From assembly GCA_965247265.1 (NCBI GenBank), contig OZ252002.1:1882964-1946963 (forward strand): a DNA stretch of 64,000 nucleotides, written 5' to 3'. The notes beneath the pieces were generated by a model. It was not told the origin of the DNA, did no database searches, and was given only the letters and a program-made list of their open reading frames with translations. Source of the stretch: Gammaproteobacteria bacterium. GTDB taxonomy: Bacteria; Pseudomonadota; Gammaproteobacteria; UBA4575. The position numbers and the translations under genes are program-made. The first letter of the stretch is position 1. Every line of letters begins with the position of its first letter. Shown here one piece after another: positions 1 through 58,714 of this stretch.

Positions 1-910
1 GCAGTGCATTTCCACCACTGCGATGAATAGTGCTTGTTAGTTTAACCTTACTATTACCAATGACTGCCTTAGTGGTTAAATTAAAGTAATCACTGGTTAC
101 GCTTAGATTTAAAACATCAATGGTAATGCCTTGTAAAAGTGGATGTCTTAGAAAATCGATAGGCTGCTCATATGGATCATCTTCGCGGTCCTTCACCAAA
201 TCATTGGCCAATTCTAGTGCAATTTTCGGGCTTAGACTTGCTAAAACTTCGGCTGATGCGGTATTAAGATTCAATGCCACATTGGCAGGTAACGTTGTGA
301 CATGAGGAAGCAAAATATTATAAGTATCCTGATCAAACCCTTTCACAAGGCGTAATTCTGAAATATCTGCCATGAGCTGATCGGCCGGTAAGTAAGCAAA
401 TTCCAATCCTATATAAATGTCTCGCTCTGCACCATCTGGACCCGCTGGGTTCACATCCTCGTCAATCCAATCAATAATGGCATCCACCAAACCTGGGTTT
501 AATTCAAGCAAGCTTAATAAACGTGATACGCGCTGTTTCATCGTTTCATCTACTTTTTTGTCTTTAATCAAACTGTTTAAATTAATTTTCCCCTGTGCAT
601 CTTCAATTTTTCCAATGATATATCCGCCCGGTAGTTCAAAAGGGGGAAGTTCAATGGCCCAATCTTCATCTAGACCATCGTAGCTACTGTTTTCCAGATC
701 ACGAGCAAGAATGGCTTGCGTCCATTGTTCAGCACCTTTTGCATAGGCCCATGCTTGGCTACTGTTAATCATATTTTCAGTTCGCCGCATATCTAATTGA
801 TAATTGGCGGCAATTGTCGTAGCCGCTGTTGCAGCAATGGCTAAAACAAGTATAGCTGTGATGGCTGCAACACCTTTATGTCTTTTAAAATTAAAAGTTT
901 TTTGTTTCAT
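1..910 (-). CDS. gspK: Type II secretion system protein GspK (partial, continues beyond window start)
   Basis: Minus-strand frame from ATG at 908-910 translates MKQKTFNFKRHKGVAAITAILVLAIAATAA... with an N-terminal TM helix and GspK-like body. The ATGA start overlaps the gspJ stop. No stop codon before position 1. Confidence 0.75.
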   Translation of the reverse strand, partial: MKQKTFNFKRHKGVAAITAILVLAIAATAATTIAANYQLDMRRTENMINSSQAWAYAKGAEQWTQAILARDLENSSYDGLDEDWAIELPPFELPGGYIIGKIEDAQGKINLNSLIKDKKVDETMKQRVSRLLSLLELNPGLVDAIIDWIDEDVNPAGPDGAERDIYIGLEFAYLPADQLMADISELRLVKGFDQDTYNILLPHVTTLPANVALNLNTASAEVLASLSPKIALELANDLVKDREDDPYEQPIDFLRHPLLQGITIDVLNLSVTSDYFNLTTKAVIGNSKVKLTSTIHRSGGNAL

Positions 911-1521
911 ATTGGTGCTGCAAAAACTCTTTTAATTTCGTCCCAGGGTTCCACTTTAATAGTGACTTCTAAAGCCTTGGGGATATTTACCTGATTTAGG
1001 TTACTATTTAAAGGCGGCCACGTCGTATGCCACTGGTTACTTTGATCAAGATAGCGCATGTTCCACGATTCAACGTTATTTAAAAGTTCTGTTTCAAAAT
1101 ATTCTTCTGCAATGGTGCCATCTAATTGTGCCCAGGTGTATCGAGTAAGTGTGTTTTCTGAAGCCTCATAGCTAATTCTTTGTAGCCGGCTACGAACAAG
1201 ATTTGCAGGATTTCTCCAACCAGAATGCGTAAAGCTTATTGCTTTATCCTCATCACCCACCAAAGCATGTTGTAAGTCACCATACTGATTTCGTACAGAT
1301 CGATTTATAATTTGTCCCATATCGCGCTCAATATATCGAAACGTCATCTGTAGATTCTTTAATCGAATCGCTGATTCTTGAAGGTGTTCTTGGCTATCTA
1401 AAACACGATTTAAACCTCCGTATGCCAGTACACTAACAACGGCAAAAATGGCAATTACAACTACCATTTCAATCAAAGTAAAACCTAAATAATTATTTGT
1501 AGTGTGAGCGCGTATAATCAT
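907..1521 (-). CDS. gspJ: Type II secretion minor pseudopilin GspJ
   Basis: 204 aa. Prepilin-type N-terminus GFTLIEMVVVIAIFAV. Position in gsp operon between gspI and gspK. Confidence 0.85.
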   Translation of the reverse strand: MIIRAHTTNNYLGFTLIEMVVVIAIFAVVSVLAYGGLNRVLDSQEHLQESAIRLKNLQMTFRYIERDMGQIINRSVRNQYGDLQHALVGDEDKAISFTHSGWRNPANLVRSRLQRISYEASENTLTRYTWAQLDGTIAEEYFETELLNNVESWNMRYLDQSNQWHTTWPPLNSNLNQVNIPKALEVTIKVEPWDEIKRVFAAPI

Positions 1522-1526
1522 AAAAT

Positions 1527-1910
1527 TTAGTTAGGCACATGCAGTAAACTAGTTAAGGCTGCATAGCTTTGTGCGTCTTTGTCTTTATCCATCCGCACTG
1601 ATATTTCTACGCGTTTAGTATCAGGATCTTCAGTACCGTCAATTTTTCTTGTCCAATACCACGTTAAACCTGCTAATTTTTCACTACCATCCGTAAATCC
1701 TATTTTTGGTTTAGCAGCGGTAAGTTCAATCTCAGCCATTTGGTTTTGTGCGACCCAATAGGCAAATGTTTTGTCTCGCAAATAAGCAGAATTAACAGTC
1801 GTAGAGGCTACGGTTTTGATTACAGCGGCCATCCCAAGTGCAATGATGGTTAACGCGACCATTACTTCTAAAAGTGTAAATCCTAAATAATGTTTTTGAG
1901 GAATTCGCAT
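1527..1910 (-). CDS. gspI: Type II secretion minor pseudopilin GspI
   Basis: 127 aa. Prepilin N-terminus GFTLLEVMVALTIIAL. Operon position. Confidence 0.85.
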   Translation of the reverse strand: MRIPQKHYLGFTLLEVMVALTIIALGMAAVIKTVASTTVNSAYLRDKTFAYWVAQNQMAEIELTAAKPKIGFTDGSEKLAGLTWYWTRKIDGTEDPDTKRVEISVRMDKDKDAQSYAALTSLLHVPN

Positions 1911-1914: not shown

Positions 1915-2421
1915 TTAATTTACTGCTGCAAATTCTAATGCACCATTTTCTGCAATTTTTAAACGATAGGTATGATCGATCTTGTCTGTGATATTCACAT
2001 AAAAAGGTGTAATTGAACCATCAGAAAGAATATAAACCTGCGGCTTTACATCATCATCTTGCGCATAGGTAACTTTTATTCCTTCTAAAAACAATTTGAA
2101 CTCCAACCCTTCGGGCAAAGTGCGCTCACGCAAAAGGTTGTCATCAGTGACGGGTATCCAGCTAGTTTCTTCTTGATTTTCTGAGTCTAAGTGATAAAAC
2201 GAATAGCTCGTACGTGTAAATACAACACCAAACTCCTCAGAGTTGAATATTGCCTGCTCTTTAGCTAAATCTAATAATGCAGCCAGTTGTTGAGACTTTT
2301 GCTCGAGTCTTTTTCCTTGATTGTCACCAAGGGTAATAGTTGCCGCGGCTACAATCATTCCAATAATGAAAATTACAACCAGCAACTCTATTAACGTAAA
2401 TCCTCGAGATATATAGAACAT
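1915..2421 (-). CDS. gspH: Type II secretion minor pseudopilin GspH
   Basis: 168 aa. N-terminus GFTLIELLVVIFIIGMI. Operon position. Confidence 0.8.
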   Translation of the reverse strand: MFYISRGFTLIELLVVIFIIGMIVAAATITLGDNQGKRLEQKSQQLAALLDLAKEQAIFNSEEFGVVFTRTSYSFYHLDSENQEETSWIPVTDDNLLRERTLPEGLEFKLFLEGIKVTYAQDDDVKPQVYILSDGSITPFYVNITDKIDHTYRLKIAENGALEFAAVN

Positions 2422-2423: not shown

Positions 2424-2867
2424 TTAATTCAGGTCAGCAATTGACATATCCTTACTCATTTCTTCACCACCTACTTTTCCGTCAGCTCCAAATGAAAATA
2501 AATCGAAAGCAGTTCCTGATGATCCTGGAATCGCATATTGATATTCATTACCCCAAGGGTCTTTCGGAAGACTGCGAAGGTAACCACCTTGTTTCCAGTT
2601 TTTAGGCTCAGGCGCACCTAGTGGTTGTGTCACGAGGGCTTGTAATCCTTGTTCTGTAGAGGGGTAGTTGAAGTTATCTAATTTATATAAATTTAACGAT
2701 GCTTCAATTGCTCGAATGTCATTTGCAACTCTCACAATTTTGGCATCATCGGTGCGTTGCATCACTCTTGGTGCAACCATGGCGGCTAGCAATCTAATAA
2801 TTACGACTACAACAACAATCTCAATTAAGGTAAAGCCGTGAGTGCGGCTACGTGCATATCTAGACAT
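2424..2867 (-). CDS. gspG: Type II secretion major pseudopilin GspG
   Basis: 147 aa. HGFTLIEIVVVVVII prepilin peptidase site and conserved GspG body. Confidence 0.9.
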   Translation of the reverse strand: MSRYARSRTHGFTLIEIVVVVVIIRLLAAMVAPRVMQRTDDAKIVRVANDIRAIEASLNLYKLDNFNYPSTEQGLQALVTQPLGAPEPKNWKQGGYLRSLPKDPWGNEYQYAIPGSSGTAFDLFSFGADGKVGGEEMSKDMSIADLN

Positions 2868-3100
2868 TTATTTCTCTCTTAGTTATTAACTCGCTGATTA
2901 TTAATGATAAATACTTTAAAATTGTAACAAGAACTTGATTGCCACATGTCCTTCGATAGTCTTTATTGGTTAGGTTAGGCAGATGATTGGCAAAATTAGT
3001 TTACTGTATATTTAACTATAAATTATAAATAGTATAATTAAATACAGTAAGTTATATAACAATATTAAAGTAGGCTAGCTCACTTAAACAGTAGCCGTTT

Positions 3101-4318
3101 TTACTGTCCAACCATTTGGTTTAAATTAAAGATTGGCATCAATATGGCCATTACAATGGCAAGTACAAATACACCCATAAACACAATAATCATAGGTTCG
3201 AGCAGCTTCAATGTGGTGTTAATAATCATATTCAATTCACGCTCTTGCTGAGAGGCGGCACGGTCTAACATATCTTCTAAATTTCCACTTTGTTCGCCAC
3301 TTGCAATTAGGTGCAATGTCATAGGTGGAAAATGGCCTGAGCGTTCCAATGACGTGTGAATATTTGCGCCTTCACTAACACTTACAGCAGCTTCCTGAAC
3401 AGCTTGACGCATGGGCCGGTTGATGATTACTTCAGTAGCAATACGTAGTGAATCGAGTACAGGTACGCCAGAAGCTGTCATGATACTTAAGGTTCGTGCA
3501 AAGCGTGCTGTATTGAGTCCACGTGTGAGCTTTCCAATAATAGGAAGGCCTAAATAAAATTTTTGAACTTTTGCTCGAAATAGTTCACTTTTCATCGAGC
3601 GTTGAAACAGAACTATCGCAATTATTATAGCGATCAAAATAAAAATTCCATAGGAAATTAGAAAGTCACTTGTTGCAATCAAAATGGTAGTGGGTAATGG
3701 GAGCTCTTGACCCATATCTGTAAACACGTTTACAACTTTTGGTACAACAATCGTGACGAGTAAAACTACGACTGCAAGCGCAATTATTAGAAGTACGATT
3801 GGATAGAATAACGCACCAATTACACTTTGTTGTGTTTCTTGCCGAGATTCCGTGTAATCGGCTAGGCGTTTCAGAACGGCATCAAGGTGGCCTGATTTTT
3901 CTCCAGCTGAAACTGTAGCGCGGTACATCTCTGGAAATGCAGATGGGAATTCGTTCAATGCTTTTTCAAGCGAGAATCCTTCTGTAACACGTGATCGCAC
4001 GCCCATGATAATGCTCGACACACGAGGTTTTTCCGTGTGTTTAGCAACAATACGTAAGGATTCTTCGAGGGGAGTGCCCGAATTAACGAGCGTTGCAAGT
4101 TGGCGAGTAAATAATGCCAGATCAGTTGAACTAAACCCTCGTTTAAATAGTCTGCTTACAGATACTTTAGCTTGTCGTTCTTTTACTTGCGCAATTGCAA
4201 GTGGATCAAATCCTTTGGAACGTAGCTGTTGTCTAGCAGAACGCGGACTATCGCCTTCAATGACATCGTTTTTTTCACGGCCGTGACTGTCTAATGCGGT
4301 ATATTCAAATGCAGGCAT
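3101..4318 (-). CDS. gspF: Type II secretion inner-membrane platform protein GspF
   Basis: 405 aa. Two GspF repeat domains with three TM segments. Between gspG and gspE. Confidence 0.9.
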   Translation of the reverse strand: MPAFEYTALDSHGREKNDVIEGDSPRSARQQLRSKGFDPLAIAQVKERQAKVSVSRLFKRGFSSTDLALFTRQLATLVNSGTPLEESLRIVAKHTEKPRVSSIIMGVRSRVTEGFSLEKALNEFPSAFPEMYRATVSAGEKSGHLDAVLKRLADYTESRQETQQSVIGALFYPIVLLIIALAVVVLLVTIVVPKVVNVFTDMGQELPLPTTILIATSDFLISYGIFILIAIIIAIVLFQRSMKSELFRAKVQKFYLGLPIIGKLTRGLNTARFARTLSIMTASGVPVLDSLRIATEVIINRPMRQAVQEAAVSVSEGANIHTSLERSGHFPPMTLHLIASGEQSGNLEDMLDRAASQQERELNMIINTTLKLLEPMIIVFMGVFVLAIVMAILMPIFNLNQMVGQ

Positions 4319-4341
4319 GAGAGGATATGGATGTTAGTCAC

Positions 4342-5879
4342 TTAAATGACAATATCTTCTTTCGTTACGCGCATCACTTCTTCTAGCGTAGTGTCTCCTT
4401 CAAGCACTAAGCGCACTCCGTCTTGACGAATGCTATGTGTATGCAGATGTGCATATTTTTCTAGCTCTTGTTCTGCGCCCACATCATGAATCATTGTGCG
4501 CATGTTCTCATCGATGGATACCAATTCATAAATTCCTGATCTACCTGAATAGCCAGTACTGTTACAGGCATTGCATGAGCCTGGTGAATAAATAATGGGC
4601 GCATCATTCATTGCTACACCTGCTTGCGCCATTCTTAGTTGCTCATATTCCACTGAACTTGCGGTATGTGAAATTTTGCACTCATCGCACAACACCCGCA
4701 CTAATCTTTGCGCCAATACCGCGACGAGGACTGAAGCTAATAAGAAGGGTTCAACCCCCATGTCACGCATACGAGTGATAGCACCGACTGCTGTATTCGT
4801 ATGCAAGGTAGAGAACACCATATGCCCGTTAAACTTGCTTGCACTGCAATTTGCGCTGTTTCAAAATCACGAATCTCACCAACCATCACAACATCAGGGT
4901 CTTGGCGCAAAATAGCACGCAGACCTCGTGCAAAGGTCATGTCTACCTTTTGATTTACTTGAGTTTGCCCAATGCCATCTATGAAATATTCAATAGGATC
5001 TTCAACTGTCAGTATATTGCGTTTTTTATCATTAATTTCACTTAATGCTGCATATAGCGTTGTGGTTTTTCCTGATCCTGTTGGGCCGGTTACCAACACG
5101 ATACCATGTTGTTTTTCTATCGATAATTTAATCTTTTTGTGAATTTCAGACTGCATGCCGAGGTGACTTAAATCTAAACGCCCTGCTTGTTTATCTAGCA
5201 AGCGCAACACCACACGCTCTCCATGCCCAGAGGGTAGGGTCGATACACGTACATCTACGGGTCGTCCGGCAATGCGCAATGATATTCGACCATCTTGCGG
5301 TAAGCGTTTCTCAGCAATATCAAGTTGTGCCATAACCTTTATTCGCGAAACAACTAATGCACCAAGATTCCTTGGTGGTTGCAAAACTTCACGCAATACA
5401 CCATCAACACGCATGCGAACTGATAATCGAGATTCAAATGATTCAATGTGAATATCAGATGCATTCTCTTTAACGGCCTGTGTTAACAAAGCATTAATTA
5501 AACGAATAATTGGAGCATCATCGTCTGCGTCCATTAAATCTTGGGGTTCAGGTAGTGCTTCGGCAAGGCTTTCTAAATCAAGGTCATCTTCGAAACTTTC
5601 CATCATGGCGAGTGCGCCTGATGCGCTTTCGTCGTAAAGCTGCGTGAGCAATTCATCAAACTCTTCGTCTGATAAGGTGCGGATGTTTAATGGCTTGCCA
5701 ACAAAACGTCTGGCTTCTGCTAAGGATGGGGGTTTAACATCTGGACGCTGAAATATCATTACACGCCCATTGATTTCATTTCCAATTAGAATGCCATGCC
5801 GTTTGGCAAAACTAAATGGCGGCCTACGGACTTCGCGAGGTGCAAATGATGGTTGTGCTTTCTCGGCTTCCATGGTCAA
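4342..5879 (-). pseudogene. gspE: Type II secretion ATPase GspE, disrupted by a 1-nt deletion
   Basis: N-terminal ORF 4737-5879 ends ...AVQASLTG then leaves frame. C-terminal ORF 4342-4821 starts [16 protein letters not shown], the conserved His box. Walker [10 protein letters not shown] is present, as is the tetracysteine motif CDECK...CNAC. A missing C at about 4828 (ggcatatgg where ggccatatgg is expected) joins the halves. Confidence 0.8.
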
Positions 5880-5887
5880 TTGAATTT

Positions 5888-7997
5888 TTACTCAACAATA
5901 ATTACATCAGAATCAGAAGGTATAGAAACGTTTTCAACTTCAACTTCTTCTAATTCAACATTTTGACCATCTTCAACAGGCATGGTTTCAACTACAGGTG
6001 TTAGTTCTAAAAGTTGATCAACCGATACAGTTGGGCTTACCGAACCGCCGCCAGGTATTTGTGTAACGAGTTCATCAAGATCGGGGAATAATGTTGCACC
6101 TTCTTTAATTAGGCCGCGATCATCAAGTTTTGCATCTAATTGTCTGGCTTGGAGATACTTATACTTAGAATTGGTTGCTAAGCTGCCTAGAGCTTCATCA
6201 CGAATAATAATTGGATGAATAAACACCATTAAGTTTTGTTTATCTTTTGTTGTGGTTGTAATTTTGAACAAGTGCCCTAACAGCGGTATGTCGCCTAATA
6301 ATGGAACCTTTTGTACTACGTCACGATATGTATCTTCAATTAATCCACCTAACACAATTGTTTGCTGGTCTCTTACAAGCACACTTGTTTTTATTGCGCG
6401 TTTATTTGTAATCAGATCGGTTGCAACAGTTGAACTCGACAGGGTAGAGGCTTCTTGTTCAATATCTAGCTGGACACTATCTCCTTCATTAATTTGGGGC
6501 GTAATGCGCAACGTTATCCCTACATCTTGACGCTCAATGGTTTGAAACGGATTAACAGAGGTATCCGTACCAGATCCTGTGTTGGTGAATGAGCCTGTTA
6601 CAAACGGAACATTTTGAGCAACCACAATTTCAGCCTCTTCGTTATCAAGTGTCAAAATAGAAGGTGTTGATAAAATATTGGTCGCCGCATCTACTTCTAA
6701 GGCGCGTAATATCGCTGCCCAACGATCTTTACCACTTCTCTTTGCAGCGCCAGCAAAAAAACCATTGCCAATCCCTGTAATCGTATCGACAACTTCATCT
6801 GCAAAAAGACTGGGCAAAGTAAGATTGCTGTCCAGAAATCCAACAGCGGGAGTACCACTTCCTGATCTGTCTGTGGGCACATATGCAAATTGGAAACCTA
6901 GGTCTTTGGCAAGGCCTGTGCTGACTTCTGCAATGATTGCATCGACCAAGACTTGTGCACGGCGAATATCAAGTTGTTTGATGATACGGCGCAGACTTTC
7001 GAATTTTGCAGGGGATGCGGTAATAATTAATGCATTGGTAGTTTCATCGGCTTGAATATCGACATCTGAATTTTGAGCAAATGTTGTGACAGTTCCACCT
7101 TGTTGCTGTTCGCCTTGGGCTTCAAATTGAGTAATGCCCAGTAATATGGGTGCAAGCTCGGCTGCTTTGGCATACTTTAAGTAGACAACTTGCGAGTTGC
7201 CGCCGCCTTCAAGTGGGGTGTCTAAATGTGCAATTAACCCGCGAATTCTTAAACGTGCTGCGTTATCTCCTGACAACAAAATACTGTTGGAACGTTCATC
7301 TGCTGCAAGCGTAGCTTGACCCGGCACTTGTCCACCTTGTGCGTCTTTACGGTTAAGTGAATTGATAATTTGTACCACTTCATTTGCGGACGCGTGTTGA
7401 AGTGGCACGACTTCAATTTCTTGGCTATAGGGCCGGTCGATACGACCAATAATTGTAATTAAGCGATGTATATTTGCAGCACGGTCTGAGATCACGAGCA
7501 CATTACTACTAGGGTAGGCTGCGAGATGCCCTTGTTGAGGAACAAGGGGGCGTAGAATAGGTACCATCTGAGCAAGCAGGTACATTCTTTATAGAAATAA
7601 CGCGTGTGACGAGCTCATCACCGGTGCCTTGCTAATCACCACTCGCTGTTGCAACAGGTCCTTGCTTAGCATTTACATCTGGTAGGATTTTTACAATTTC
7701 ACCTACTTGTACTGCTGCATAGCCATGAACTTGTAAAACGGAGAGAAATACTTGATACACCTCTTCACGGTCCATGGGTCGTGCAGATATCACAGTGGCC
7801 TTAGCTTTTACGCGAGGATCTACTACAAAGTTTCTATCTGTAGCCGCCGCAACCGTTTCTATAAATGATCGTATATCGGCATCTTTGAGATTCAGCGTCA
7901 CACCTGTTTCAGCAAGCGATGTACTGAAAATTACAAAACATGCAGTAGCAATGCATATTAATTTACAAATCTTAGATTTTAAAAACATATATTTCAT
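5888..7997 (-). pseudogene. gspD: Type II secretion secretin GspD, disrupted by an in-frame TAG plus a frameshift between the N0 and N1 domains
   Basis: ORF 7632-7997 encodes a signal peptide plus secretin N0 domain (VTLNLKDADIRSFIETVAAATDRNFVVDPRVKAKATVIS). It ends at a TAG, after which the same frame continues GDELVTRVISIKNV. The body of the secretin (5888-7585, 565 aa, N1-N3 and secretin domain) is in another frame. Confidence 0.8.
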
Positions 7998-8148: not shown

Positions 8149-9039
8149 CTATTGAGTTAAATCCTGAAACAGTGTCAATTCAGTTCCTTCACGAATAACA
8201 ACCATTGTAATCTCATCGGCAGTGGCTAGCGTTTGTAGCGCTTTGGGACCCTTATCGGGTTGATCCAAAGGGATACCATTAAAATTGATGACAACGTCAC
8301 CAGGTTGGAAGCCCAGCGCATAAAACATATCTGGATTTTTACTTGGGATGACCTTGTAGCCTTGGAATTCACCGGTTTCTTCATTTTTCTCAGGTGTAGC
8401 ACGGATGAATTCAGTGAGTCGAGTTGGGTTTTTCATGACTTCTTGGCGAAATTGCCCGAGTGATTCAAAGTCACCACGAGCCTGTGTTGCCTGTGGTTGT
8501 GGTGTGGATCGAGGCGTTGCTACAGGCTCATTTCCAAAACCCTTGGCATTCGCTTTAGGCAGGCGCAGCGTTTCCATGCGAATATCGCGCTCTAAAATAA
8601 CACGGTCGGGATACACAGCATGCAATGTTGCACCACCAGGAATATCATCACCGAGTGAATAGTGTTTTACCTTGTTTGCCCCGCTTGAAATAATGGCATA
8701 GCCATATTCTTTATTACCAGCCAGGACACCTAATAATTTTAGGTTCAGTGTTGTGTCAGGCGCGTTCTCCACTTTTTTAGATGCATTGGGTATGACTTTT
8801 CCCATGATGTGCATTTGAGCAACATTGCGATCATAGTTTGGCCGGGGTTGTGGCTTAGCAGGGTTGGTGGCTGCTGTTGGGGCTGTAGCCGTAACTGTAT
8901 CGACGCCTGAATTAAAAAAGCTCAAAAATACCTTTACCAAAGTGATAATAATTAAGGCAATTAAGGCTAGATTAACCAGACGTGGTAGCTTCGTCTCTAT
9001 TTGAGGCCAAAGCGTATTAAATGAAGCCGCGAATTCCAT
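8149..9039 (-). CDS. gspC: Type II secretion protein GspC (N-terminal TM, C-terminal PDZ-like domain)
   Basis: 296 aa. TM helix near the N-terminus. The C-terminal region GFQPGDVVINFNGIPL...EITMVVIREGTELTL is PDZ-like. Lies upstream of gspD. Confidence 0.65.
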   Translation of the reverse strand: MEFAASFNTLWPQIETKLPRLVNLALIALIIITLVKVFLSFFNSGVDTVTATAPTAATNPAKPQPRPNYDRNVAQMHIMGKVIPNASKKVENAPDTTLNLKLLGVLAGNKEYGYAIISSGANKVKHYSLGDDIPGGATLHAVYPDRVILERDIRMETLRLPKANAKGFGNEPVATPRSTPQPQATQARGDFESLGQFRQEVMKNPTRLTEFIRATPEKNEETGEFQGYKVIPSKNPDMFYALGFQPGDVVINFNGIPLDQPDKGPKALQTLATADEITMVVIREGTELTLFQDLTQ

Positions 9040-9202: not shown

Positions 9203-9278
9203 GTCCCCATCGTCTAGAGGCCTAGGACATCGCCCTTTCACGGCGACAACAGGGGTTCGAATCCCCTTGGGGACGCCA
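9203..9278 (+). tRNA. tRNA-Glu (anticodon UUC)
   Basis: gtccccatcgtctagaggcctaggacatcgccctTTCacggcgacaacaggggttcgaatccccttggggacgcca. Near-identical in architecture to the E. coli tRNA-Glu cloverleaf, anticodon loop CTTTCAC. Confidence 0.9.
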
Positions 9279-9384
9279 ATAAAATCAATAATTTATAATA
9301 ATATCCAGCTCTATAATTCAAACACGGGTAATAAACGGGTAAATTTCCCGATTTATTATTTCTATTTCTTTAGGCATAAATCGA

Positions 9385-9615
9385 ATGACAGAGCTATTCG
9401 AAAAACTAAAATTTGAGCTCTCAAATAAGTATTACCGCTCTAGACGTAACCTAATACTGGCAAGTTCTTTCGCAATTTTTTGTCTTCTTGCGGATGTTTC
9501 TCGCAATGAGATAAGACCAGGTTTCTCAGCAGTAGCAGTGATTGGACGAGAATTTATGATTCCTGTATTTCTTATCGTAATAATTTCCTATTTCTGGTTT
9601 TGTCCTGCCCTCTAA
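9385..9615 (+). CDS. hypothetical small membrane protein
   Basis: 76-aa ORF with a hydrophobic C-terminal half. No recognisable motif. AT-rich and lies between the tRNA and the IS remnant. Confidence 0.2.
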   Translation: MTELFEKLKFELSNKYYRSRRNLILASSFAIFCLLADVSRNEIRPGFSAVAVIGREFMIPVFLIVIISYFWFCPAL

Positions 9616-9689
9616 ACTTGAATCGGTTTTGAATGCGAGACTTTCATAAATAGTCCTTCCCCAAAAGCTGGGCCAGGCTTTATGCGACA

Positions 9690-10815
9690 TTCTGACTTAA
9701 ATTTGCCTGTTTTTCTGCCCGTTCCCGGTGCGCTTCAGCGAAAACTCCACCGGTGTTTTGTAACCCAGCTGGCTGTACGGCCTTTCGTGATTATGCATCT
9801 CTCTCCATCGGTAAATCTTGATCCGTGCATCGTCCAAAGACAAGCACCAGTTCCGGTTCGAACATTCCAGCCTCACACGGGCATTCAATGCCTCGATCAA
9901 CGCATTGCCCGCGGGCTTTCCAGGGCGTGATAAGTCCAGCGTCACACCGTTGGCATAGGCCCACAAGTCCACTTCTTTCGACACGAACCCCAGGCCACTG
10001 TCGTCTGCTCCCTGAATCGTACGCGGGATCTCGTACTCCCGGGTAGCCCGCTCCAGGGTGTGTACCACATCATAGCCCGTATACCTGCGGCGCACCTCCA
10101 TCGCAGGACTTACACGAGTAAAGTGATCCACTATCTTAACACCCTCAGCCTCTGGCCATCCAAGGTCTGGGCCGCCATACAATCCATGCTCCAGCAGTCA
10201 TTCTGGAAACGGACCGGGGTAATACGTGCTTTCCGCAGTTTCTCCTGCACTCGCCGCCGTGGGCGTTTGTGCCGCACCTGCAGCCCCATCTCGCAGTACA
10301 ATCGATAGACCTGCTTGCGACACTGACCGCCCACAGCCTTCCCGACGTAACAACGCATGTATGCGTAGATACCCGTACCGGGTGCGGGTGGGTCCGCGCA
10401 ATGTCCCGGATCCGCTACTTCAATGCCACCTGTTCCACCTTGCGTGACCGGTACAGCCAGGTCTATCGCGGCAAATACACCCCCTCGCAAGCCCGCCTGG
10501 CACTCACCCCAAAACCATCCATCCACCCGGCGCGCCAACTCCCTCATGCGCGCAGGCCTTAAAGCTTTTTTCGGATCACCTCCTACAGCATGTGACGGTC
10601 CAGGCTCAAGTCCGCCACCCTCTGCTTCAATCAATGGTTCTCAACCTCCAGCTTCTTCAACCGGCGTACCTCTGAAGACGCCAATCCCCCAAACTTCTTC
10701 TTTCACCGGTAACATGTCTGCTCCGAAATCCCCACCTCCGTGACACCCATACCGCCCTCATGCTGGTGCAGCGCATAGGCAATCTGCTCCTCGCTAAACT
10801 GCGACTTCTTCATGC
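9690..10815 (-). mobile_element. Degraded IS3-family insertion sequence (orfA/orfB remnants with multiple frameshifts and stops)
   Basis: The minus strand from 10812 encodes MKKSQFSEEQIAYALHQHEGGMGVTEV..., an IS3-family OrfA HTH start, interrupted by stops. The ORF at 10131-10634 and the ORF at 9697-10182 carry the IS3 OrfB integrase-core (DDE) homology (…KTPVEFSLKRTG). The element is GC-rich relative to the flanks. Exact ends are not determined. Confidence 0.75.
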
Positions 10816-11258
10816 AAAAACATCCTTCCCCTACAAGGACATCTTAACGAGATTTTTCGCACTATGCCTGGTTCAGTTTACGGGGAGAAGACCAATCATC
10901 ATCTTTTTCCTGTTCTTAGATTTGTGTCAGATTCTGGGTTTACCCACAAGAAGAAGCTTTTATGTTCATGGGCAGCATTACAATGCTCAAGACATACGGC
11001 CTGCACAATGGGTTTAGACCTAAATTGCCGATCACATTTGTCAGTGATGATTGGAACGTTGTTTTCGTGTGCCTTGGTCCATGCTCCTGAATTTCGCAAT
11101 AAAATTTTTCTGGGGCAATTCAGTTGTGAACAATGCCTTTTTATTTACTTTCCTCCTTGTAGCGAGTTTGCTCTGAGCTACATCCAATATTTGTGGTAGC
11201 CTTTAATATGTAAAGGTGTACAGTACACCGCACACCAATCCGGGAAAGTCAATATATT

Positions 11259-12359
11259 ATGCAGATGCTACCGCTAGCTATTGCCCTAGCCGCCAGCTCT
11301 GTATTTGGCTTTGCTGGCTTTGAGGCGGATGCCGCCTCAAAAACAATTGAGATTGATGGTGAAACCGTTGCATGCGTCGACCGGACTGTGCAATCCCAGA
11401 TGGCGGTTGTAGACGCCCACGTACATTTTCGCCCGTTCGGCGGCAAGGCTCTGCCGTTTGAGGAGGTAGTTCAGTATCTTGAAAAAGCTGGTGTACGATT
11501 CGTGACTGTATATGGTATCGGCCAGATGCTACCAGTGTCATCATCATGTACATACTATCTCGACTGTCCCGGAACACCGGTAATGCCTACTTTAAAGAAT
11601 GACTTTTTTAACGCCGTCAATTACATCACTAAGGGTTCAGGTACGGTCCACATAACATTATCTATGAGTTTCCCAGACCTCACCCAGCCGGAAACTGTGC
11701 TCGATGGTATACGGTTGCTGGATAAGGAGTTTCCTGGGGTGTTCAAGTGGATGGGTGAAGTCAACCTGGTTAAGCAGGCGCTCTTTGGTAATCACCGTCT
11801 TGCCGTTCCCATGACTAAGATTGAGAAATGGGCACCGTTCATGGCTGAACTGCGCAAACGCGACATGCCTATCTCCATTCACTCGGACCTGGGAAGTAAC
11901 GAGGAACCAACTCGTTACTTGCCTTGGATCGAAGAGGTGTTGCGTCTGTACCCTGACAACAAGATCATCTGGATGCATCTTGGTTTGTCGCGGGAACTTA
12001 CCATAATCGACGTCAACAACCATATCGCGGTTCTGCAGTCGCTACTAGACCGCTATCCAAATCTGATGCTTGACATTGCTTGGCGAGTGATTGATGACAA
12101 CTACTTCTCAGACCCCAAGTTACGTGTGCAGTACGTGCCGTTCCTGAACACCTACTCTGACCGCATTTTACCCGGATCAGACTTTGTTGCGTCCATCAAT
12201 AAGAACTTCGAGGTGTATCAGGAGGAACTTGAAGTCACCAGTCGGATTATCCGCTACCTCGATAACGATGCGTTCCGGAATATTGCCCTCGGCGAGAACT
12301 ACTTCAGGCTGCTTGGTCTAGATGAGAAAGCACCTGTAGTGTGCTCTCGCCCTGATTGA
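11259..12359 (+). CDS. secreted metal-dependent amidohydrolase (amidohydrolase-2 / TIM-barrel hydrolase family)
   Basis: 366 aa. Signal peptide. HxH metal motif VDAHVHF near the N-terminus of the mature protein, with later His and Asp residues typical of the family. GC-richer than the surrounding DNA. Confidence 0.7.
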   Translation: MQMLPLAIALAASSVFGFAGFEADAASKTIEIDGETVACVDRTVQSQMAVVDAHVHFRPFGGKALPFEEVVQYLEKAGVRFVTVYGIGQMLPVSSSCTYYLDCPGTPVMPTLKNDFFNAVNYITKGSGTVHITLSMSFPDLTQPETVLDGIRLLDKEFPGVFKWMGEVNLVKQALFGNHRLAVPMTKIEKWAPFMAELRKRDMPISIHSDLGSNEEPTRYLPWIEEVLRLYPDNKIIWMHLGLSRELTIIDVNNHIAVLQSLLDRYPNLMLDIAWRVIDDNYFSDPKLRVQYVPFLNTYSDRILPGSDFVASINKNFEVYQEELEVTSRIIRYLDNDAFRNIALGENYFRLLGLDEKAPVVCSRPD

Positions 12360-12514
12360 AGTCGATTCACTCAAAATTGCTGCACAAGTTTGGACCCATA
12401 AACTTGCTATGTTAAATGACTGACTTGATACATCTCATACCCACACACCCTTAAAATGATTAATATTTGTACAGATGTATAATGGCGAAAGCCGTTTAAA
12501 ATCAGTCAGATAGT

Positions 12515-12546
12515 TGGTGGATCTCATAGGATTCGAACCTATGACC
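12515..12546 (-). other. tRNA 3'-end fragment (T-arm plus acceptor 3' strand plus CCA), possibly an att-site remnant
   Basis: The minus strand reads ggtcATAGGTTCGAATCCTATgagatccACCA: a perfect 5-bp T-stem, a TTCGAAT loop, 7 nt of acceptor, a discriminator A and CCA. No matching 5' acceptor strand (ggatctc) lies upstream, so this is a fragment and not a gene. Confidence 0.45.
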
Positions 12547-13254
12547 ATTGAGTTGAAAAACCATTAAATAACCCTTTAAAATTAATATCTTACAAGTTTT
12601 TTTTGATTCTTCAATACCGTGTACCGTTAATCCGCCGATAGTCCCAGTTTTGTGGATCTTTTCGTTGTCTTTTACATAGTCAAATGGGAGTCAGCCTTGA
12701 TTGTTTCGAGCCTTTGGGTCTATACCGGCCCGTATAGGATGCCCCTCTACTATTAAATCTGAAGCAGTAGTTCACTGCGTTTTTTTTGATAATGTAAAAG
12801 TTTCCACAATATGATTGATCTTCTGGCTCAAACTCTTTCCCAATACGCGTCAGTTGGCGAAACGCTAACACAGATAACGGTCCAACTTAAAGAAAGTGTG
12901 TGAAGAACGCTTTGATTTAAGCGATCGTATGCAGTCACAGCTTGCAGAGACCAGTACAAACACAATGAACACGAAGCTTACAGAACAAGTCTGGTGATGC
13001 GGCCTCATGTCAAAGCCTCCGATCCAAAAACTTGGCGACACCTGGCAACCGGATTTGAATTGTTGTTGCCCTATAGAGGGCCGGTGGCTGGCGAAACTCT
13101 GCGCGCCTGCATCCCCGCTATGTGGTCACTCAGGAAGTACCTTTTGTTCAACCAGAATTGCCACTGAAAAATGTTTGCTTATGAGCAATGAACCAAAATG
13201 ACAGCCCTCTCACTGGCCCGCCATGTCCACACTTTAGACACAATCATAGCAATC

Positions 13255-13632
13255 CTACCAATTTAACAATTCTGATTCAGTCGGTTCGATCTGAGCCGCA
13301 AGATCTGATGTAATAAATTCTAGCATTTGCGCAAGTCTTCGGCGCACAATTGAATCGTTTTTATCCAAACCTAAAGCTAATGCCTCACGGTACATAACCT
13401 CTTCACGAATTTGCTGATTAATAAGGCCTTTTAATTCGGCTTGAGAAGATAGGCGTTGCCACCTTTTTTTCCATATAGCATTCAAGCGATCGATATCTGC
13501 GATAGAGAAGATTATGCGATTGTCACTATTATTAGTATCAACATCATTATTGATCAAAGAATATGTGACAAAAAGCAATCCTCCGATCACCAAAAAATGT
13601 AATAGCGGCTCACGCAACCATTTTTTTAACAA
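13255..13632 (-). pseudogene. Truncated periplasmic PPIase-like (SurA/PpiD N-terminal-domain family) protein, N-terminal 125 aa only
   Basis: MLKKWLREPLLHFLVIGGLLFV... TM anchor, followed by a conserved region (IREEVMYREALALGLDKNDSIVRRRLAQMLEF). The ORF ends where homologues continue for >100 aa further. Confidence 0.45.
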
Positions 13633-13662
13633 GCTTGTTCTCCGAAGTTAGGAGTTAATAAT

Positions 13663-13926
13663 TTAGTTGAATACTAAAATGAAAGACGACCGGCCCGCAG
13701 CGCAAGATTGCTCACCATAATAATCAATGAACATCATTCCTTCTTTGGCGATACGATCAATATTAGGCGTGTGATAGCCCATTAAGCCTATGCTATAGGC
13801 ACTGACATTGGTTTGACCAATATCATCCCCCCAGATGACTAAGATATTAGGTTTATCTGCTGCTGACGCTGTTATTGAGAAAATTGAAACGAATAGAATT
13901 AAACACAATTTGTTTAGCGTTATCAC
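13663..13926 (-). pseudogene. Sulfatase N-terminal fragment
   Basis: 87-aa ORF with a signal peptide, [13 protein letters not shown], and a C-x-A-x-R-S formylglycine-type motif (SCAAGRSS). The rest of the ~500-aa enzyme is absent. Confidence 0.45.
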
Positions 13927-14235
13927 AGTATCCCCCGATGTTTATAAATAGATGAACATGTTCTTATGTTTAGTGTATATAACAACATTTTTTTCTAATG
14001 TAGTACTTATCTAAATGTAGGTAATTACTGCTAAATTTGATGTTAGTTAGAGTATTTATATAATAAATTCTTTTATATTCAGATATTAACAATAAATACT
14101 TAAATTTTTACCTTATTATTTTAATCCTACAGCTGCCAAAAGCATGTCTGTGATGAGGTGGAATATCTATGATAAATCAGAATCATAAGTATACTTAGTC
14201 GTTAAGGTTGTTGGGTTCTTAAAATAAAAATAAAA

Positions 14236-14580
14236 ATGCAATTAGCAAATTTCAAACGACTGCGTGTCTTAATCCCTTTAGTATTTGTCACAGTACTTAT
14301 AGTCGTTTCAGTTGTCGTATTTCATCCTTCGTTTCAAAGGAAAATGCTACTCGATTATGTCGTACCACATGTCAGTGCACTGAGTTTTGACCTCGTCCAC
14401 ATCACACCCTGGTCGATGGATATCGAAAATTTAGCCATCGAGTATGAAGGTGGTCACTTCCAAATTGGAAAGGGTGCAATCAGATATTGTGGTTTGGTGA
14501 TAAAGGGCAAGCAAAAGAGCACAGCCAATAATTTTGATTATTCAGACAAATATAAGAACGTTATAAAAACTACCATATAA
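14236..14580 (+). CDS. hypothetical membrane-anchored protein
   Basis: 114 aa with an N-terminal TM helix. No recognisable domain. Confidence 0.3.
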   Translation: MQLANFKRLRVLIPLVFVTVLIVVSVVVFHPSFQRKMLLDYVVPHVSALSFDLVHITPWSMDIENLAIEYEGGHFQIGKGAIRYCGLVIKGKQKSTANNFDYSDKYKNVIKTTI

Positions 14581-14585
14581 GCATA

Positions 14586-15864
14586 ATGAACAAACCACTT
14601 TTAAAAGGGTACGGACTATCTATATTGCTCATTGCTGCGGGTTTTATACTTGCGTATCAATTTGTCGAACCTGCGCCGCCCAATCAATTAATTATGGCTA
14701 CTGGGAGCAAAACAGGTGCCTATCATAGTTTTGGCTTGGCGTTACAAAAAGTGCTTGCAGAAGATGGCATTGAACTGGAGTTGCGAAATTCTGATGGCAG
14801 TATGGAAAATGCAATGTTCATTGCAGATGGGACTGTCGATATATCAATCATTCAGGGTGGAACGCCTTTGTCTAAAATCGATAGAGGTGAAGAAATTCGA
14901 TCGCTTGGTAGTCTTTATTATGAGCCGATGTGGTTGTTTCACAAAATCAATCCACCACCACAAACCTTGCAACAGTTATCTCGTTTTCGAGTAAACAAAG
15001 GTAAAGAAGGGAGTGGAACGCTCCAACTCGTTAATGAGTTACCTAATCTGAATGATATGACCGAAGATAAGTTTTCTATGCTTGGTAATGCAGAGGCAAG
15101 TGAAGCGCTTGTAGCAGGAAAGTTAGATGCTGCATTCATAGTAAGCGGGGAAAAGTCTAAAGATGTTCAGAAGTTATTTGCAGCCAAAGATGTTGCAATT
15201 ATGGATTTTCCTCGTGCTGAAGCCTACCATTTACATCGCCGATATTTGTCAGTCCTTAAGTTACCGCCTGGTGGAATTGACATGGCAGATAATCGACCAG
15301 CTTTTGAACGCAGTCTAATTGCTGTGACTGCAGTTCTTGTTGCGCATGAAGATTTACATCCTGCGTTGGTAGATTTATTGCTGATGGCATCAAAGCGTAT
15401 TGTGGATAAACCCTGGCTTGTTTAACAAAAAAGGCCAATTTCCTTCTGGTAAATACCTATCTATTCCATTAGATAAAGATGCGGAACGAATTCATAAACG
15501 TGGACCATCATTTTTGCAACGCTATCTCCCATTTTGGGCGGCCACATTAGTGGATAGAATGATACTTATGCTAGTACCATTGATAGCAATTGTATTCCCT
15601 TTATTTAAAATTTTTCCACCTGTCTATCGTTGGCGAGTACGGTCACGTATTTATCGTTGGTATGCAGACTTGAAAAATATTGAAGTGAGACTCAATAAAG
15701 AAGAGTCAAGCAAAGATTTAATTAATGCAATTCAAGAACTCGAAAGCGAAGTCAAGCAGGTTGAAACACCATTATCTTATTCTGATGAGCTTTATCATTT
15801 GCGCAGTCATATTGACTTGGTATATGCGCGCATTAAAGAACGCGATGAGACTGGATACTTATAA
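14586..15864 (+). pseudogene. TAXI-family (TRAP-associated) periplasmic solute-binding protein with a C-terminal TM/coiled-coil extension, frameshifted
   Basis: ORF 14586-15425 has a TAXI-like body. ORF 15400-15864 in another frame continues with the conserved ...PGLFNKKGQFPSGKYLSIPLDKDAERIHKRGPSFLQRYLPFWAA... region and a TM helix. The two frames overlap by 26 nt. Confidence 0.55.
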
Positions 15865-16288
15865 GAATCTATTGAAATTAAAGTATTTAAAGTATAAAAA
15901 TAGTGTCTAGTAAAAATATTTTTTACTGCAGCATAAAACAAACAACATTTTTAAAGGATAAAACATGAGAACGTTGTTCACATTTAGCATTATTACTTTG
16001 ATGCTTATTACTGGCACTGCAATTGCTGAGAAAAAGCTTACACAAAAAGGTGCTGCAACCACTCACAGTCAGGTGAGCGATTGGTTGCTGCTAGTGAAGA
16101 ACGGTCAAATGCTAAAATCAAGGTAGGCGAGGGTGGTGAAGCATACAAAGGAACGCTTGACTATTGGTCTATAATAATAAGCAATCGGCTTTCAACTCAC
16201 GCTAAATAAGCATTTCAAAAACTATAAATATTATCCTCGTACGTATATTATGGCATACGAGGATTCATAAATTATTGAGAAATATCGT

Positions 16289-16781
16289 ATGAGAATATTA
16301 ATTTTATTATCTATGTCTGCGTTTTTATTTAGTTATGCAATAGTATCTGTAGCGCAAGATTTTTTCGTCTACCCATCAAAAGGCCAGTCATCGGAGCAAA
16401 CCGAAAAAGATAAATTTGAATGTTACGGTTGGGCCAAAAATGAAACCGGATTTGATCCAATTCAAACACCGACTGCAACTCGACCGCCTCCGCAAAAAGA
16501 GCAAGAAAAAGTAGGTGCTGCAGGCGGTGCTGTTGGCGGTGCAATAGTGGGCGGAGCGATAAGCGGCCTACTAGGTGGTGATGTTGAAGCCGGTGCAGCA
16601 GCAGGTGCTGTTGGAGGCGGTTTATTTGGCGGCGTGCGTAGAAGCGGACCAAAAAAAACGTGAGGCAGCGGCCCAACAACAATGGGAACAGGAACAAATG
16701 CAAAAATATGCGGGCGGACGAAATGCCTACAATCGTGCCTATGTCGCATGTTTAGAAGCACGTGGTTACTCGGTAAAATAG
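16289..16781 (+). CDS. Glycine-zipper family secreted/lipoprotein, reading frame broken at an A8 homopolymer
   Basis: Signal peptide, then FECYGWAKNETGFDP, then a Gly/Ala zipper (GAAGGAVGGAIVGGAISGLLGG...). The frame shifts at aaaaaaaa (16651-16658). The second frame ends ...NAYNRAYVACLEARGYSVK, which is typical of the family. Confidence 0.6.
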
Positions 16782-16793
16782 CAGGAGAAAAAT

Positions 16794-17177
16794 ATGAATA
16801 TGTCAATACGAATTTTAATAATATTGATGTTGATACTCAATACAACATTGATCCATGCCAATGAAATTGACTCCTCAAAACCTTTAGTCTGTGCAATAGT
16901 AGAAGTTATAGATTGTGGCGTGAAGGGTGATTGCGAACCGGTTGATCCCGAATTTGTAAATTTACCCAATATTTTTAAAGTCGATACGGAAAGTAAAGTA
17001 CTGCACAGTGGAGAACGCAAAACAAAAATTGATCATGTCACAAAAAATAAACAGGTAACCAGTGATGATAACAAAGCATGGTCTTTTGTGTTGTCTAACA
17101 ATACAGGCAAATTTACAGGTGCCATAGCTGCCTATGATTATGGCTTTCTCTTATTTGGATCATGCATCGTTGATTAA
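16794..17177 (+). CDS. hypothetical secreted protein
   Basis: 127 aa, signal peptide, four Cys residues. No recognisable family. Confidence 0.35.
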   Translation: MNMSIRILIILMLILNTTLIHANEIDSSKPLVCAIVEVIDCGVKGDCEPVDPEFVNLPNIFKVDTESKVLHSGERKTKIDHVTKNKQVTSDDNKAWSFVLSNNTGKFTGAIAAYDYGFLLFGSCIVD

Positions 17178-17323
17178 TTAGATTTTTAGATCACTAGCTC
17201 ATTGACCTTGAAGGTTGTTAATTTTATGTATGATGAGAGATTTTAATACTTACAGTTCATATATTTTTTACTCATTCAAATTTTGAGCTCCATGCATGAA
17301 ACATTCGTTTCCAGTATGCGTTT

Positions 17324-18510
17324 ATGCATAAAACACTTCTAATACTATTAATTTCAATACTTTGTTCGGCATGTGCAAGTATTAGTCGTGGCATTACTGA
17401 AGGCGTACTTAGTAGTAAAAATCAGGACTTAGTGGATGAGCGCGAATGCAATATACGCGGAACTAAATTTGATGGTCTCGATTCATCTTTTAATACACAA
17501 GGGAAAAGCCCTACATTAAAAGTATTAATGGTGCATGGTATTGGTGAGCATCTTCCCGGGTATTCAACCCGCATGGCTGAAAATTTAGCAACAGCCTTAA
17601 ATTTAAATGTTGGGAGCGCACGTTTTAAAGAAATTGACATAGTAGCAGGCCGATTTCCAAATGAAAATCTTGGAAAATTACGTATTGACCGTTACATAAA
17701 TCAGGAAGAGTCACAAGAAATGCTCTTTTATGAGCTGACTTGGTCGCCAATTGCTAAAAAAGAGAAAGATATTCTTGCCTATGATAACTCTGGTGAACAT
17801 TCGTTTCGTCGTGCCAACATTAACAACATCATGAAACCTTATATGAACAGTCATGTATCGGATCCACTTATTTATCTTGGTGCATCGCAAGAAAAAATAC
17901 AGGTATCTGTCATTACTTCAATATGCTGGATGATGAGCCGCGACTGGAAAGAAATCGATGAACATACACAAGGGCGGTGTGTAGCCGAACACACCAAATA
18001 TAATAAAGTATTAGATGATGAATTTGCTTTTATTACTCACAGCATGGGGAGTCGAATCGTCACAGATTCTTTTCAGGCGCTAATTCAGTACTTAGATAAT
18101 GAATTACAAACCAATTGCCGCTATTACAACTTGGCCGTGATAATCCTGAAGTGACCAATCAACATGAGGAATATTGTATGTCGGATGGAGAAAATTATGA
18201 CAAACGTTTCTTCAAAGAACTTACCGTTGTGGCATTTAGTGACCCGAATGACATAGTAAGTTATGACGTGCCACCCAAATTTGTTGATGAATATATGGAT
18301 TCCAGGCTATGCGTGAACTTAATTAACATCACAATAAATATCGCGCACGTAAAAGAACTTTTTGGATTAGGCTCATTCGCTAACCCATGTTTCGCACATC
18401 GACAATATGATAATGATGAGCGGGTAGTCGGAATTATTTCACACGGGCTACACGATCAGAATATTGCAGCTGTAGTAAAAGAACGCTGCGAATATCAAGA
18501 AACGAGATAA
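17324..18510 (+). pseudogene. Lipoprotein alpha/beta-hydrolase (lipase-like, GxSxG = THSMGS), frameshifted
   Basis: ORF 17324-18154 has a lipobox LCSAC and the nucleophile elbow ITHSMGSRIV. ORF 18115-18510 in a different frame carries candidate Asp and His catalytic residues (DPNDIV, HGLHD). Confidence 0.5.
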
Positions 18511-18718
18511 ATATATTTAACTTTATATAAGTAATATAACAATTTGTAATTAATACATGTTCTATTAATCAATCAATCATTGAGGCAAATTAGACACATC
18601 ATGTATCTAAAATGGATGACGCAACAATAACGTTTAATTTGCTAAAGTCAAAACATTAGCTGTTGCTAATATATGATTTTGTAATTTCCTAGCATTATTT
18701 CTATTTGGAGCTGTTGAT

Positions 18719-19333
18719 ATGTCTAGTGCACCCGAATCAATTTCCCCTAATTCCTGCGACATGGAAGCCTTAAATCAATGGTTTGATGAACGATTAGAGC
18801 AAAAGCTGCAGGAACGAGACGAAGCAAAAATTCCGCAACTTTCATTGATTGTCACAAAAGGCACAATGGATATGGCGTATCCGCCCTTTATTCTGGCTTC
18901 AACCGCTGCAGCGTTAGATTGGGAAGTATCCTGTTTTTTTACCTTCTATGGCTTAAATTTACTTAAGAAAAACCTTGATCTAGAAATTTCCCCACTGGGT
19001 AATCCTGCTATGCCAATGAAAATGCCATTTGGACCTGATTGGTTTCAGAACATTAAATGGGATATACCGAATGCGTTAAGCAGCAATATCCCAGGATTTG
19101 AAAAATTTGCGACCACAATGATGAAGCAAACGCTTAAAAACAAGGGTGTGGCAAGTGTTCAGGAGTTACGCGAGCTAAGCGTTGAAGCCGATGTAAAACT
19201 CATCGCTTGTCAAATGACGGTAGATTTATTCGGTTATAGTAAAGATGAGTTTATTGATGATGTGTCTGAATGGGTAGGTGCAGCTTCATTTTTACCTGCC
19301 GCTCAAAAGTCTGATATCTGCTTGTTCATTTGA
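18719..19333 (+). CDS. DsrE/DsrF-like (DsrE2-type) sulfur-transfer family protein
   Basis: 204 aa. Motifs TMDMAYPPFILASTAAA, FFTFYGLNLLKK and conserved Cys in IACQMTVDLFG match the DsrE2 family signature (FFTFWGL...C-x-M). Confidence 0.6.
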   Translation: MSSAPESISPNSCDMEALNQWFDERLEQKLQERDEAKIPQLSLIVTKGTMDMAYPPFILASTAAALDWEVSCFFTFYGLNLLKKNLDLEISPLGNPAMPMKMPFGPDWFQNIKWDIPNALSSNIPGFEKFATTMMKQTLKNKGVASVQELRELSVEADVKLIACQMTVDLFGYSKDEFIDDVSEWVGAASFLPAAQKSDICLFI

Positions 19334-21247: not shown

Positions 21248-21277
21248 TTTTATGACTCCTAACTTAAACCTGTGCGA

Positions 21278-25101: not shown

Positions 25102-25134
25102 TCAGATAATATTCTCTATCTACTATCAAACAAT

Positions 25135-25650
25135 ATGGGCGTAAAAAAATTACTTACACAAGCAATTTTTGTAGTGCCCATCTTGGCCATTATTACAGTG
25201 CCGGTGATATTGCATTTTAAAAGTCAAAGTACTACGCCAGCAGAGAATAATAATGCTGGCCCAACTTATCAAAACAATCTTTCTACACACAGTTTCACAA
25301 ATACAATTTCTTCTGCTCAGGCATATGATAAATTCGCAATTCCTGAACCATTCTCTGCTGCAAATTCAACTTTAGGGCTGACGTATGCCATGACTAAATC
25401 CATGGATCCGAATACGTGGATGAAGATGATGATGAATATGATGAATCCAGCCATGATGACTCAAATGATGCACCAGATGATGCAAATTCCCACTAAAATG
25501 ATGGTGCCTTTCATGAATAATGGATTCAGTATGGGCCCGGCTATGTTACCGCAATCACATGCGATGGGCTCTGCACCAAATATAATGACCCCTGCACAAT
25601 ATAAAGATTGGTACACAAAGCAACAGAATAAGCTTAACAATGTCAAATAA
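25135..25650 (+). CDS. Secreted methionine-rich protein, paralogous to the two upstream genes
   Basis: 171 aa. N-terminal TM/signal. SMDPNTWMKMMMNMMNPAMMTQMMHQMMQIP block. C-terminal PAQYKDWY resembles PKQYENWF of the preceding gene. Confidence 0.5.
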   Translation: MGVKKLLTQAIFVVPILAIITVPVILHFKSQSTTPAENNNAGPTYQNNLSTHSFTNTISSAQAYDKFAIPEPFSAANSTLGLTYAMTKSMDPNTWMKMMMNMMNPAMMTQMMHQMMQIPTKMMVPFMNNGFSMGPAMLPQSHAMGSAPNIMTPAQYKDWYTKQQNKLNNVK

Positions 25651-27302: not shown

Positions 27303-27321
27303 CGAATTATTCCTTCATCTT

Positions 27322-58705: not shown

Positions 58706-58714
58706 TCTGCATTT

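Follow-up and report, generated by a model that had tools for sequence, protein, structure and literature searches.

The minus strand of the first 9 kb of the stretch analysed here carries a type II secretion (Gsp) operon with the genes gspC-D-E-F-G-H-I-J-K, in which the reading frames of the secretin gene gspD and the ATPase gene gspE are interrupted. The question raised by this locus is whether the two genes have been inactivated in the bacterium or only appear broken in the assembled sequence. The stretch, referred to below as the window, comprises 64,000 nucleotides (nt) of the genome of a gammaproteobacterium (assembly GCA_965247265.1, contig OZ252002.1, positions 1,882,964 to 1,946,963). 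We consider it probable (about 0.7) that gspD and gspE are young pseudogenes which arose by real point mutation in this strain of an uncultured marine UBA4575 sulfur oxidiser.

Neither of the two frames is continuous: gspD contains a TAG nonsense codon and a +1 frameshift, and gspE contains a 1-nt deletion (Table 1). The TAG codon, which the original prediction had correctly placed after the N0 domain, results from a T-to-A change at 7633, where the window has A and L001, a contig from the JGI metagenome 3300023223, has T. The residue at this site varies among relatives (I, V, S, T or L). The second lesion of gspD, an added T, falls in an invariant segment of N1, which reads NVPAAQMVPILRPLV in 14 of 14 relatives. 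A frame change had been predicted before N1; the frameshift is present, but it is located inside the first strand/helix of that domain (NVPA-AQMVPILRPLV). In gspE, the lost base is the third position of a Gly codon, for which five relatives have GGN-CAT in the DNA alignment, confirming that the protein is split just before the conserved His box. The loss of one nucleotide had been put at about 4828, which is 3-4 nt off its actual place at about 4824/4825.

Repair of three bases gave a 702-amino-acid (aa) GspD and a 512-aa GspE, both of which could be aligned over their whole length, free of additional gaps and stops, with the products of nine intact orthologous operons. The repaired GspD aligned in full with homologues carrying PF21305, PF03958 and PF00263, and the repaired GspE aligned over residues 1-512; all nine orthologous operons encode a full-length GspE. 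The comparison with close relatives that had been suggested at the outset hence returned nine intact operons, from which the lesions are absent. Both genes are disrupted relative to intact orthologues of close relatives, gspD by comparison with L001 and gspE by comparison with the relatives. Since the breaks were defined against nine intact operons, a chance pattern is excluded. Both gspD fragments are listed as separate called proteins of the 2,764,221-bp contig in NCBI/ENA, which places the gspD lesions, at least, in the deposited record. Reassignment of TAG was rejected, as TAG is an ordinary stop that ends 23 of the 71 open reading frames (ORFs) of the window.

Another explanation would be programmed recoding or phase variation, with a -1 frameshift in gspE and readthrough plus a +1 frameshift in gspD giving regulated full-length proteins. 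A -1 slip right after the GGC codon of gspE would restore the exact protein sequence. However, no X_XXY_YYZ heptamer was present within the gspE zone in which both frames are open, and the RNA downstream of the site folded no better than shuffled sequences (z = -0.41). For gspD, two different recoding events 58 nt apart would be required. The lesion sites are not simple-sequence repeats, and the frameshift and the stop are absent from all relatives, which have plain in-frame sequence there. Programmed frameshifting or readthrough, named by the original prediction as something that could overturn it, thus found no support in the motif, the fold or the conservation of the sites, and we regard it as extremely improbable.

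If the genes are pseudogenes, both the outer-membrane secretin and the assembly ATPase would have been lost through three independent point lesions. The 121-aa product of gspD would consist of the signal peptide and N0 only and could not form a channel, and the 565-aa remainder, without a signal peptide, would be unable to reach the outer membrane. GspE would lose the His of the His box, and its C-terminal zinc-binding domain would be detached from the half that contains Walker A and Walker B. By established biology of the type II secretion system (T2SS), from which these functional consequences are drawn, either defect alone would abolish secretion, and the T2SS would be non-functional though gspC and gspF to gspK look intact. 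After the loss of one essential component, selection would no longer maintain the others, and further hits could pile up. We propose that the three lesions in two adjacent genes reflect such a loss of selection after the first hit, and the loss of the T2SS would form part of a wider gene inactivation in the same genome region.

The distribution of lesions in the window is compatible with this sequence of events. Six definable single-nt lesions were found in about 39 kb of coding sequence, and three of them are in the 3.65 kb of gspDE (binomial p of about 0.013, calculated post hoc). Such clustering is what one would expect after an initial hit has released the system from selection, whereas uniform error would not yield it.

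The age of the gspD lesions was estimated with same-species sequences. Among the genome and metagenome contigs and the protein collection, no same-species gspE or full-length gspD was found; only L001, L048 and L049 were available, which span gspC and the 5' end of gspD, and L048 stops 5 nt short of the TAG site. L001 is 98.9% identical to the window over 1.9 kb and intact at both gspD sites. Both gspD lesions should therefore be strain-specific and very young, lying within about 1% nucleotide divergence. With L048 as the outgroup, the window and L001 have 7 and 7 private substitutions, respectively, over 1,594 shared nt, and the branch of the window has nonsynonymous to synonymous counts of 5:1, that of L001 counts of 4:2. 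Private amino-acid changes at columns invariant in the other relatives numbered 24 of 668 in GspD, 10 of 506 in GspE and 10 of 405 in GspF, compared with 54 of 1562 for six neighbouring control genes, and the gsp genes are thus without excess. There is no footprint of long neutral evolution, and the inactivation is either very recent or not real. The earlier claim of a recent inactivation agrees with the intact 99%-identical allele and with the lack of excess private change. The description of the operon as decaying holds for the lesions in gspD and gspE; for the operon as a whole it goes slightly too far, as only two genes are affected and no relaxed constraint across the operon was detected.

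The existence of L001 also bears on how widely the lesions are shared. They could be real and confined to a subpopulation, so that T2SS-defective cells, for example public-goods cheaters, live alongside proficient cells of the L001 type and the contig represents a strain consensus. The intact 99%-identical allele occurs in another metagenome, and further same-species gspC variants in two Logan runs indicate that the species is polymorphic. L001, however, comes from a data set other than the source sample, and its coexistence with the window strain would be an assumption. We consider a mixture of this kind very unlikely.

Some or all of the three lesions might instead have been introduced by long-read (metagenome) assembly, perhaps where coverage is locally low or strains are mixed, in which case the genes would be intact. 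Of the three lesions, two are indels of 1 nt. Contigs of relatives from the same public series have names given by long-read assemblers, with coverage tags (ctg321906_63x.rc, ctg162123_3.23x_l), and in one of them, L051, the gsp operon is itself broken up by indel noise. Frameshifted GspE fragments are also common among public protein sets. Six differences between the window and L001 are clustered within 120 nt (7575-7694), but three of these are derived in L001 and not in the window. The nonsense change in gspD is a transversion and not an indel, and the contexts of the two indels are T1-to-T2 and G3/C, neither of which is a long homopolymer. In 31.3 kb of ORFs with full-length or nearly full-length family matches, each of the 47 A/T runs of at least 6 and each of the 66 G/C runs of at least 4 is in frame, as are the A7, T6, G5 and C5 runs within gspD and gspE themselves. 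The indel density of gspDE (2 per 3.65 kb) predicts about 17 frameshifts in these 31 kb, and the observed number is 0. The symmetry of the private substitutions with L001 argues against extra base-call noise, the single 2.76-Mb contig (2,764,221 bp) implies adequate coverage, and the window holds other real pseudogenes, with large truncations and nonsense codons. Assembly error, the main rival explanation, is unlikely to account for the broken frames, and the original argument against a pure artefact is strengthened by the contexts of the indels, the in-frame homopolymers, the substitution symmetry and the other pseudogenes.

A useful picture of assembly artefacts in a gsp operon is given by L051, a contig from a related species (ENA ERZ25072490, ctg162123_3.23x_l, 2497-7257), in which the same operon is shattered by indel noise. 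In this 3.2x contig, gspC is in three pieces and gspD and gspE are in two each, and compensating indels are present, with a +1/-1 pair eight codons apart in gspD by which GR*ISYTCN replaces GDELVTRV. L051 is from the same clade and, like the window, has split gspD and gspE ORFs. Unlike L051, the window has three lesions only, one of which is a transversion, and its seven other gsp genes and 31 kb of ORFs are clean. Another relative, L052, has a different deletion of about 40 codons together with a frame change. Two apparent parallels were rejected. In L047, the frame changes fall where masked or N bases give runs of X, and the operon is not counted as a second broken one; the GspD homologues P0080 and P0121, which are without N0, have no common architecture that would make a recurrent split secretin.

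Several points weigh against the conclusion that gspD and gspE are pseudogenes. The lesions are read from the assembled consensus, and the metaMDBG/Flye-style contig names of the relatives suggest that the source may also be a long-read metagenome assembly, a type of assembly in which isolated indel errors occur. Relaxed selection has no support beyond the lesions themselves, given the lack of excess private changes in the gsp genes and the similar nonsynonymous to synonymous counts on the two branches. The nearest gspE available for comparison is that of L047, which has 94% aa identity and is intact at the lesion site. Many of the other broken genes of the window belong to accessory or island DNA, and healthy genomes, too, commonly carry pseudogenes in such regions.

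Apart from gspD and gspE, the operon is in good order. The gene identities and break points were assigned with NCBIfam equivalog models (C, D, E, F, G, H, I and J), and GspK was assigned by Pfam. The ORF map and the family models confirmed the canonical order from C to K; GspC, E, F and G-K are all in one operon, and the gene order matches that of nine relatives. The pseudopilins, gspF and gspC had been described as intact, and C, F, G, H, I and J match their models essentially over the full length. The 5' and 3' pieces of gspD are read in different frames, and the two pieces of gspE overlap in different frames. The 5' fragment of gspE contains N1E, N2E, Walker A, the Asp box and Walker B, followed by a 28-aa out-of-frame tail, and the 3' fragment contains the remainder of the His box from MVFSTLHTN, the Cys-rich zinc-binding region and the C-terminus. 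The operon of the relatives has 12 genes, and in L003 gspL, gspM and gspN come after gspK; by analogy, their position would fall beyond the left end of the window.

Table 1. Positions of the gsp genes, their lesions and the other broken genes in the window.
Feature	Position	Strand	Evidence
gspK, 5' part, runs past the left end of the window	2..931	-	Pfam T2SSK_1st and T2SSK; alignable with GspK of relatives
gspJ, intact	907..1521	-	TIGR01711 positions 2-189 of 192
gspI, intact	1527..1910	-	TIGR01707 positions 1-100 of 101
gspH, intact	1915..2421	-	TIGR01708 positions 1-168 of 169
gspG, major pseudopilin, intact	2424..2867	-	TIGR01710 positions 1-132 of 134
gspF, intact	3101..4318	-	TIGR02120 positions 1-401 of 401; 405/405 residues aligned to relatives
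gspE, 3' fragment, 159 aa	4342..4821	-	TIGR02533 positions 339-486 of 486
gspE, 5' fragment, 380 aa	4737..5879	-	TIGR02533 positions 2-337 of 486
gspE lesion: 1-nt deletion in the Gly codon of ...SLTG-H...	4824..4825	-	ACGGG-CAT vs ACNGGNCAT in five relatives
gspD, 3' fragment, 565 aa, N1-N3 and secretin domain, without signal peptide	5888..7585	-	TIGR02517 positions 110-593 of 600; Pfam Secretin_N, Secretin
gspD lesion 2: +1 T insertion, start of N1	7574..7575	-	window GCTTGCT vs L001 GCTGCT
gspD lesion 1: TAG nonsense codon, N0-N1 linker	7632..7634	-	TTG (Leu) in L001
gspD, 5' fragment, 121 aa, signal peptide and N0	7632..7997	-	TIGR02517 positions 1-83 of 600
gspC, intact	8149..9039	-	TIGR01713; 98% identity to L001 GspC
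FadL/Toluene_X outer-membrane transporter, pseudogene	~29054-29788	-	residues 1-241 of 439 in three frame pieces, two frameshifts
TolC-like OEP, remnant	39956-40240	-	last 95 residues (372-466 of 466) remain
AAA_13-family ATPase, split	49702-51980	-	one A added to an A6 run (about 51426-51431), giving a 759-aa ORF
Carbamoyltransferase (NodU/CmcH-like), broken	57311-58735	-	TAA at 57916-57914
VOC/glyoxalase, broken	58769-59170	-	TAA at 58927-58925, mid Pfam domain

Other genes of the window are broken as well, among them the badly degraded core genes for FadL and the TolC-like protein. The remainder of the FadL gene is gone, with no recognisable ORF from the pseudogene down to 28650, and the gene is intact (439 aa) in L053 at the syntenic place, beside the same glycosyltransferase. 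The TolC-like gene is intact (466 aa) in L054, the closest relative, and the ribBA and flavodoxin genes which in L054 are located between the TolC-like gene and fur are missing from the window locus. The lesion of the AAA_13 ATPase is the only one of the window in a classical homopolymer context; ATPases of this type are often found in defence or abortive-infection loci. The TAA codons of the carbamoyltransferase and the VOC/glyoxalase are two more nonsense lesions of the substitution type, and since only the last ~45 positions of the N-terminal Pfam domain of the carbamoyltransferase were matched, the gene is possibly truncated too. Indel noise in a consensus cannot produce large truncations or nonsense codons, and the genome of the window therefore demonstrably carries real pseudogenes, which differ in age.

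Within these 64 kb, four genes for envelope or secretion proteins (GspD, GspE, FadL and the TolC-like protein) are dead, although the genome has kept its size. The knock-out of the T2SS may be part of a loss of envelope functions that is non-random and still under way, with three outer-membrane proteins and GspE dead in 64 kb, although we judge this to be quite unlikely. If true, the sulfur oxidiser could recently have become host-associated or moved into a sheltered habitat, or the loss of phage receptors could have been selected for. The genome would then be a full-sized example of early-stage erosion in a clade of chemoautotrophs from which otherwise only free-living or loosely associated metagenome-assembled genomes (MAGs) are known.

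Directly 3' of the tRNA-Glu gene (9203-9278, plus strand) lies a block of about 9.5 kb (9279-18757) that is absent from all relatives, in which a DsrE-like gene follows directly after tRNA-Glu. The block looks like a decayed genomic island. It contains IS3 (insertion sequence) transposase fragments at 9697-10634, within a segment of about 51% guanine-cytosine (GC) content at 10-12 kb, an amidohydrolase, a sulfatase stub (13666-13926) and an ORF for a TAXI-type solute receptor, the match of which ends short of the end of the Pfam profile. No att repeat of the 3' end of tRNA-Glu was found at the far side of the 9.5-kb island. Inside the island, at 16509-16632, GGY-rich units of 12 nt are repeated in a short, imperfect tandem array that encodes a Gly/Ala-rich stretch. 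The tRNA-Glu gene itself has three differences from that of L001 (9246, 9251 and 9267), all in the 3' half, which corresponds to about 4% divergence against 1% in the flanking sequence. Two of the changes can be read as compensatory, from G-C to A-U in the T stem, and the third as converting U-G to U-A in the anticodon stem. Such a pattern would be compatible with an integrating element having replaced the 3' half of the tRNA.

Further along the window, two adjacent secreted-looking proteins, extremely rich in Met, with repeats of the MMNPMMG type and no Pfam match are encoded at 24412-25647 on the plus strand, flanked by a DUF302 protein and a sulfur-transport gene; that they bind metal is only a guess. 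The region from 44 to 56 kb is an accessory or mobile stretch with two tyrosine integrases (48012-49139 and 54993-55985) and a DUF2130 protein, and its segment of about 48% GC at 44-46 kb carries a myo-inositol-1-phosphate synthase-like gene (44764-45978). The window ends in the C-terminus of a type I restriction R subunit (63207-63998).

The window belongs to a sulfur oxidiser, with fccAB (19964-21943), soxYZ (26988-27780), a DsrE-like gene and a sulfur transporter, and UBA4575, both an order and a family in GTDB, has been described as a thiosulfate-oxidising, RuBisCO-bearing lineage. Tidal-flat sand, deep-sea nodule sediment and coral skeleton are the sources of the MAGs that represent the closest sequenced relatives (GspE identity 89-92%). 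One of the relatives, IP29b_bin.12, is placed in the GTDB family UBA4575 and has a genome of 2.70 Mb with 38.4% GC and 89.9% coding sequence. By a crude measure applied equally to both, the coding density is 79% in the window vs 86-91% in the loci of the relatives.

If the lesions are real, the strain would be unable to secrete folded proteins through the only T2SS seen in the window, in contrast to the nine sequenced relatives with a comparable operon, all of which keep it intact. This would point to a niche without need for secreted hydrolases or adhesion factors, or to reliance on neighbours for both. The lesions would also flag a genome with relatively many pseudogenes, which matters when the genome is used for metabolic reconstruction or as a species representative. 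If they are artefacts, they would mark a local quality problem in a 'complete' long-read genome.

The gene set and gene order of the operon are the same as in the canonical Gsp operon of Gammaproteobacteria, of the type of Eps in Vibrio cholerae and Pul in Klebsiella. In contrast to that operon, the secretin and ATPase frames are interrupted here, and the system is not countable as functional. As a process, the inactivation of gspD and gspE is ordinary gene loss and another case of a well-known phenomenon. Young pseudogenes during gene loss are a general pattern in recently host-restricted or small-population lineages. The window resembles them in having one or two point lesions per gene, unworn sequence and intact orthologues in close relatives, as well as other pseudogenes and IS remnants nearby and a lowered coding density. 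Unlike host-restricted lineages, the relatives here are free-living or loosely associated sulfur oxidisers of sediment, sponge and coral skeleton, and unlike lineages with shrinking genomes, no shrinkage is visible, the contig being 2.76 Mb and the genomes of the relatives 2.4-2.7 Mb.

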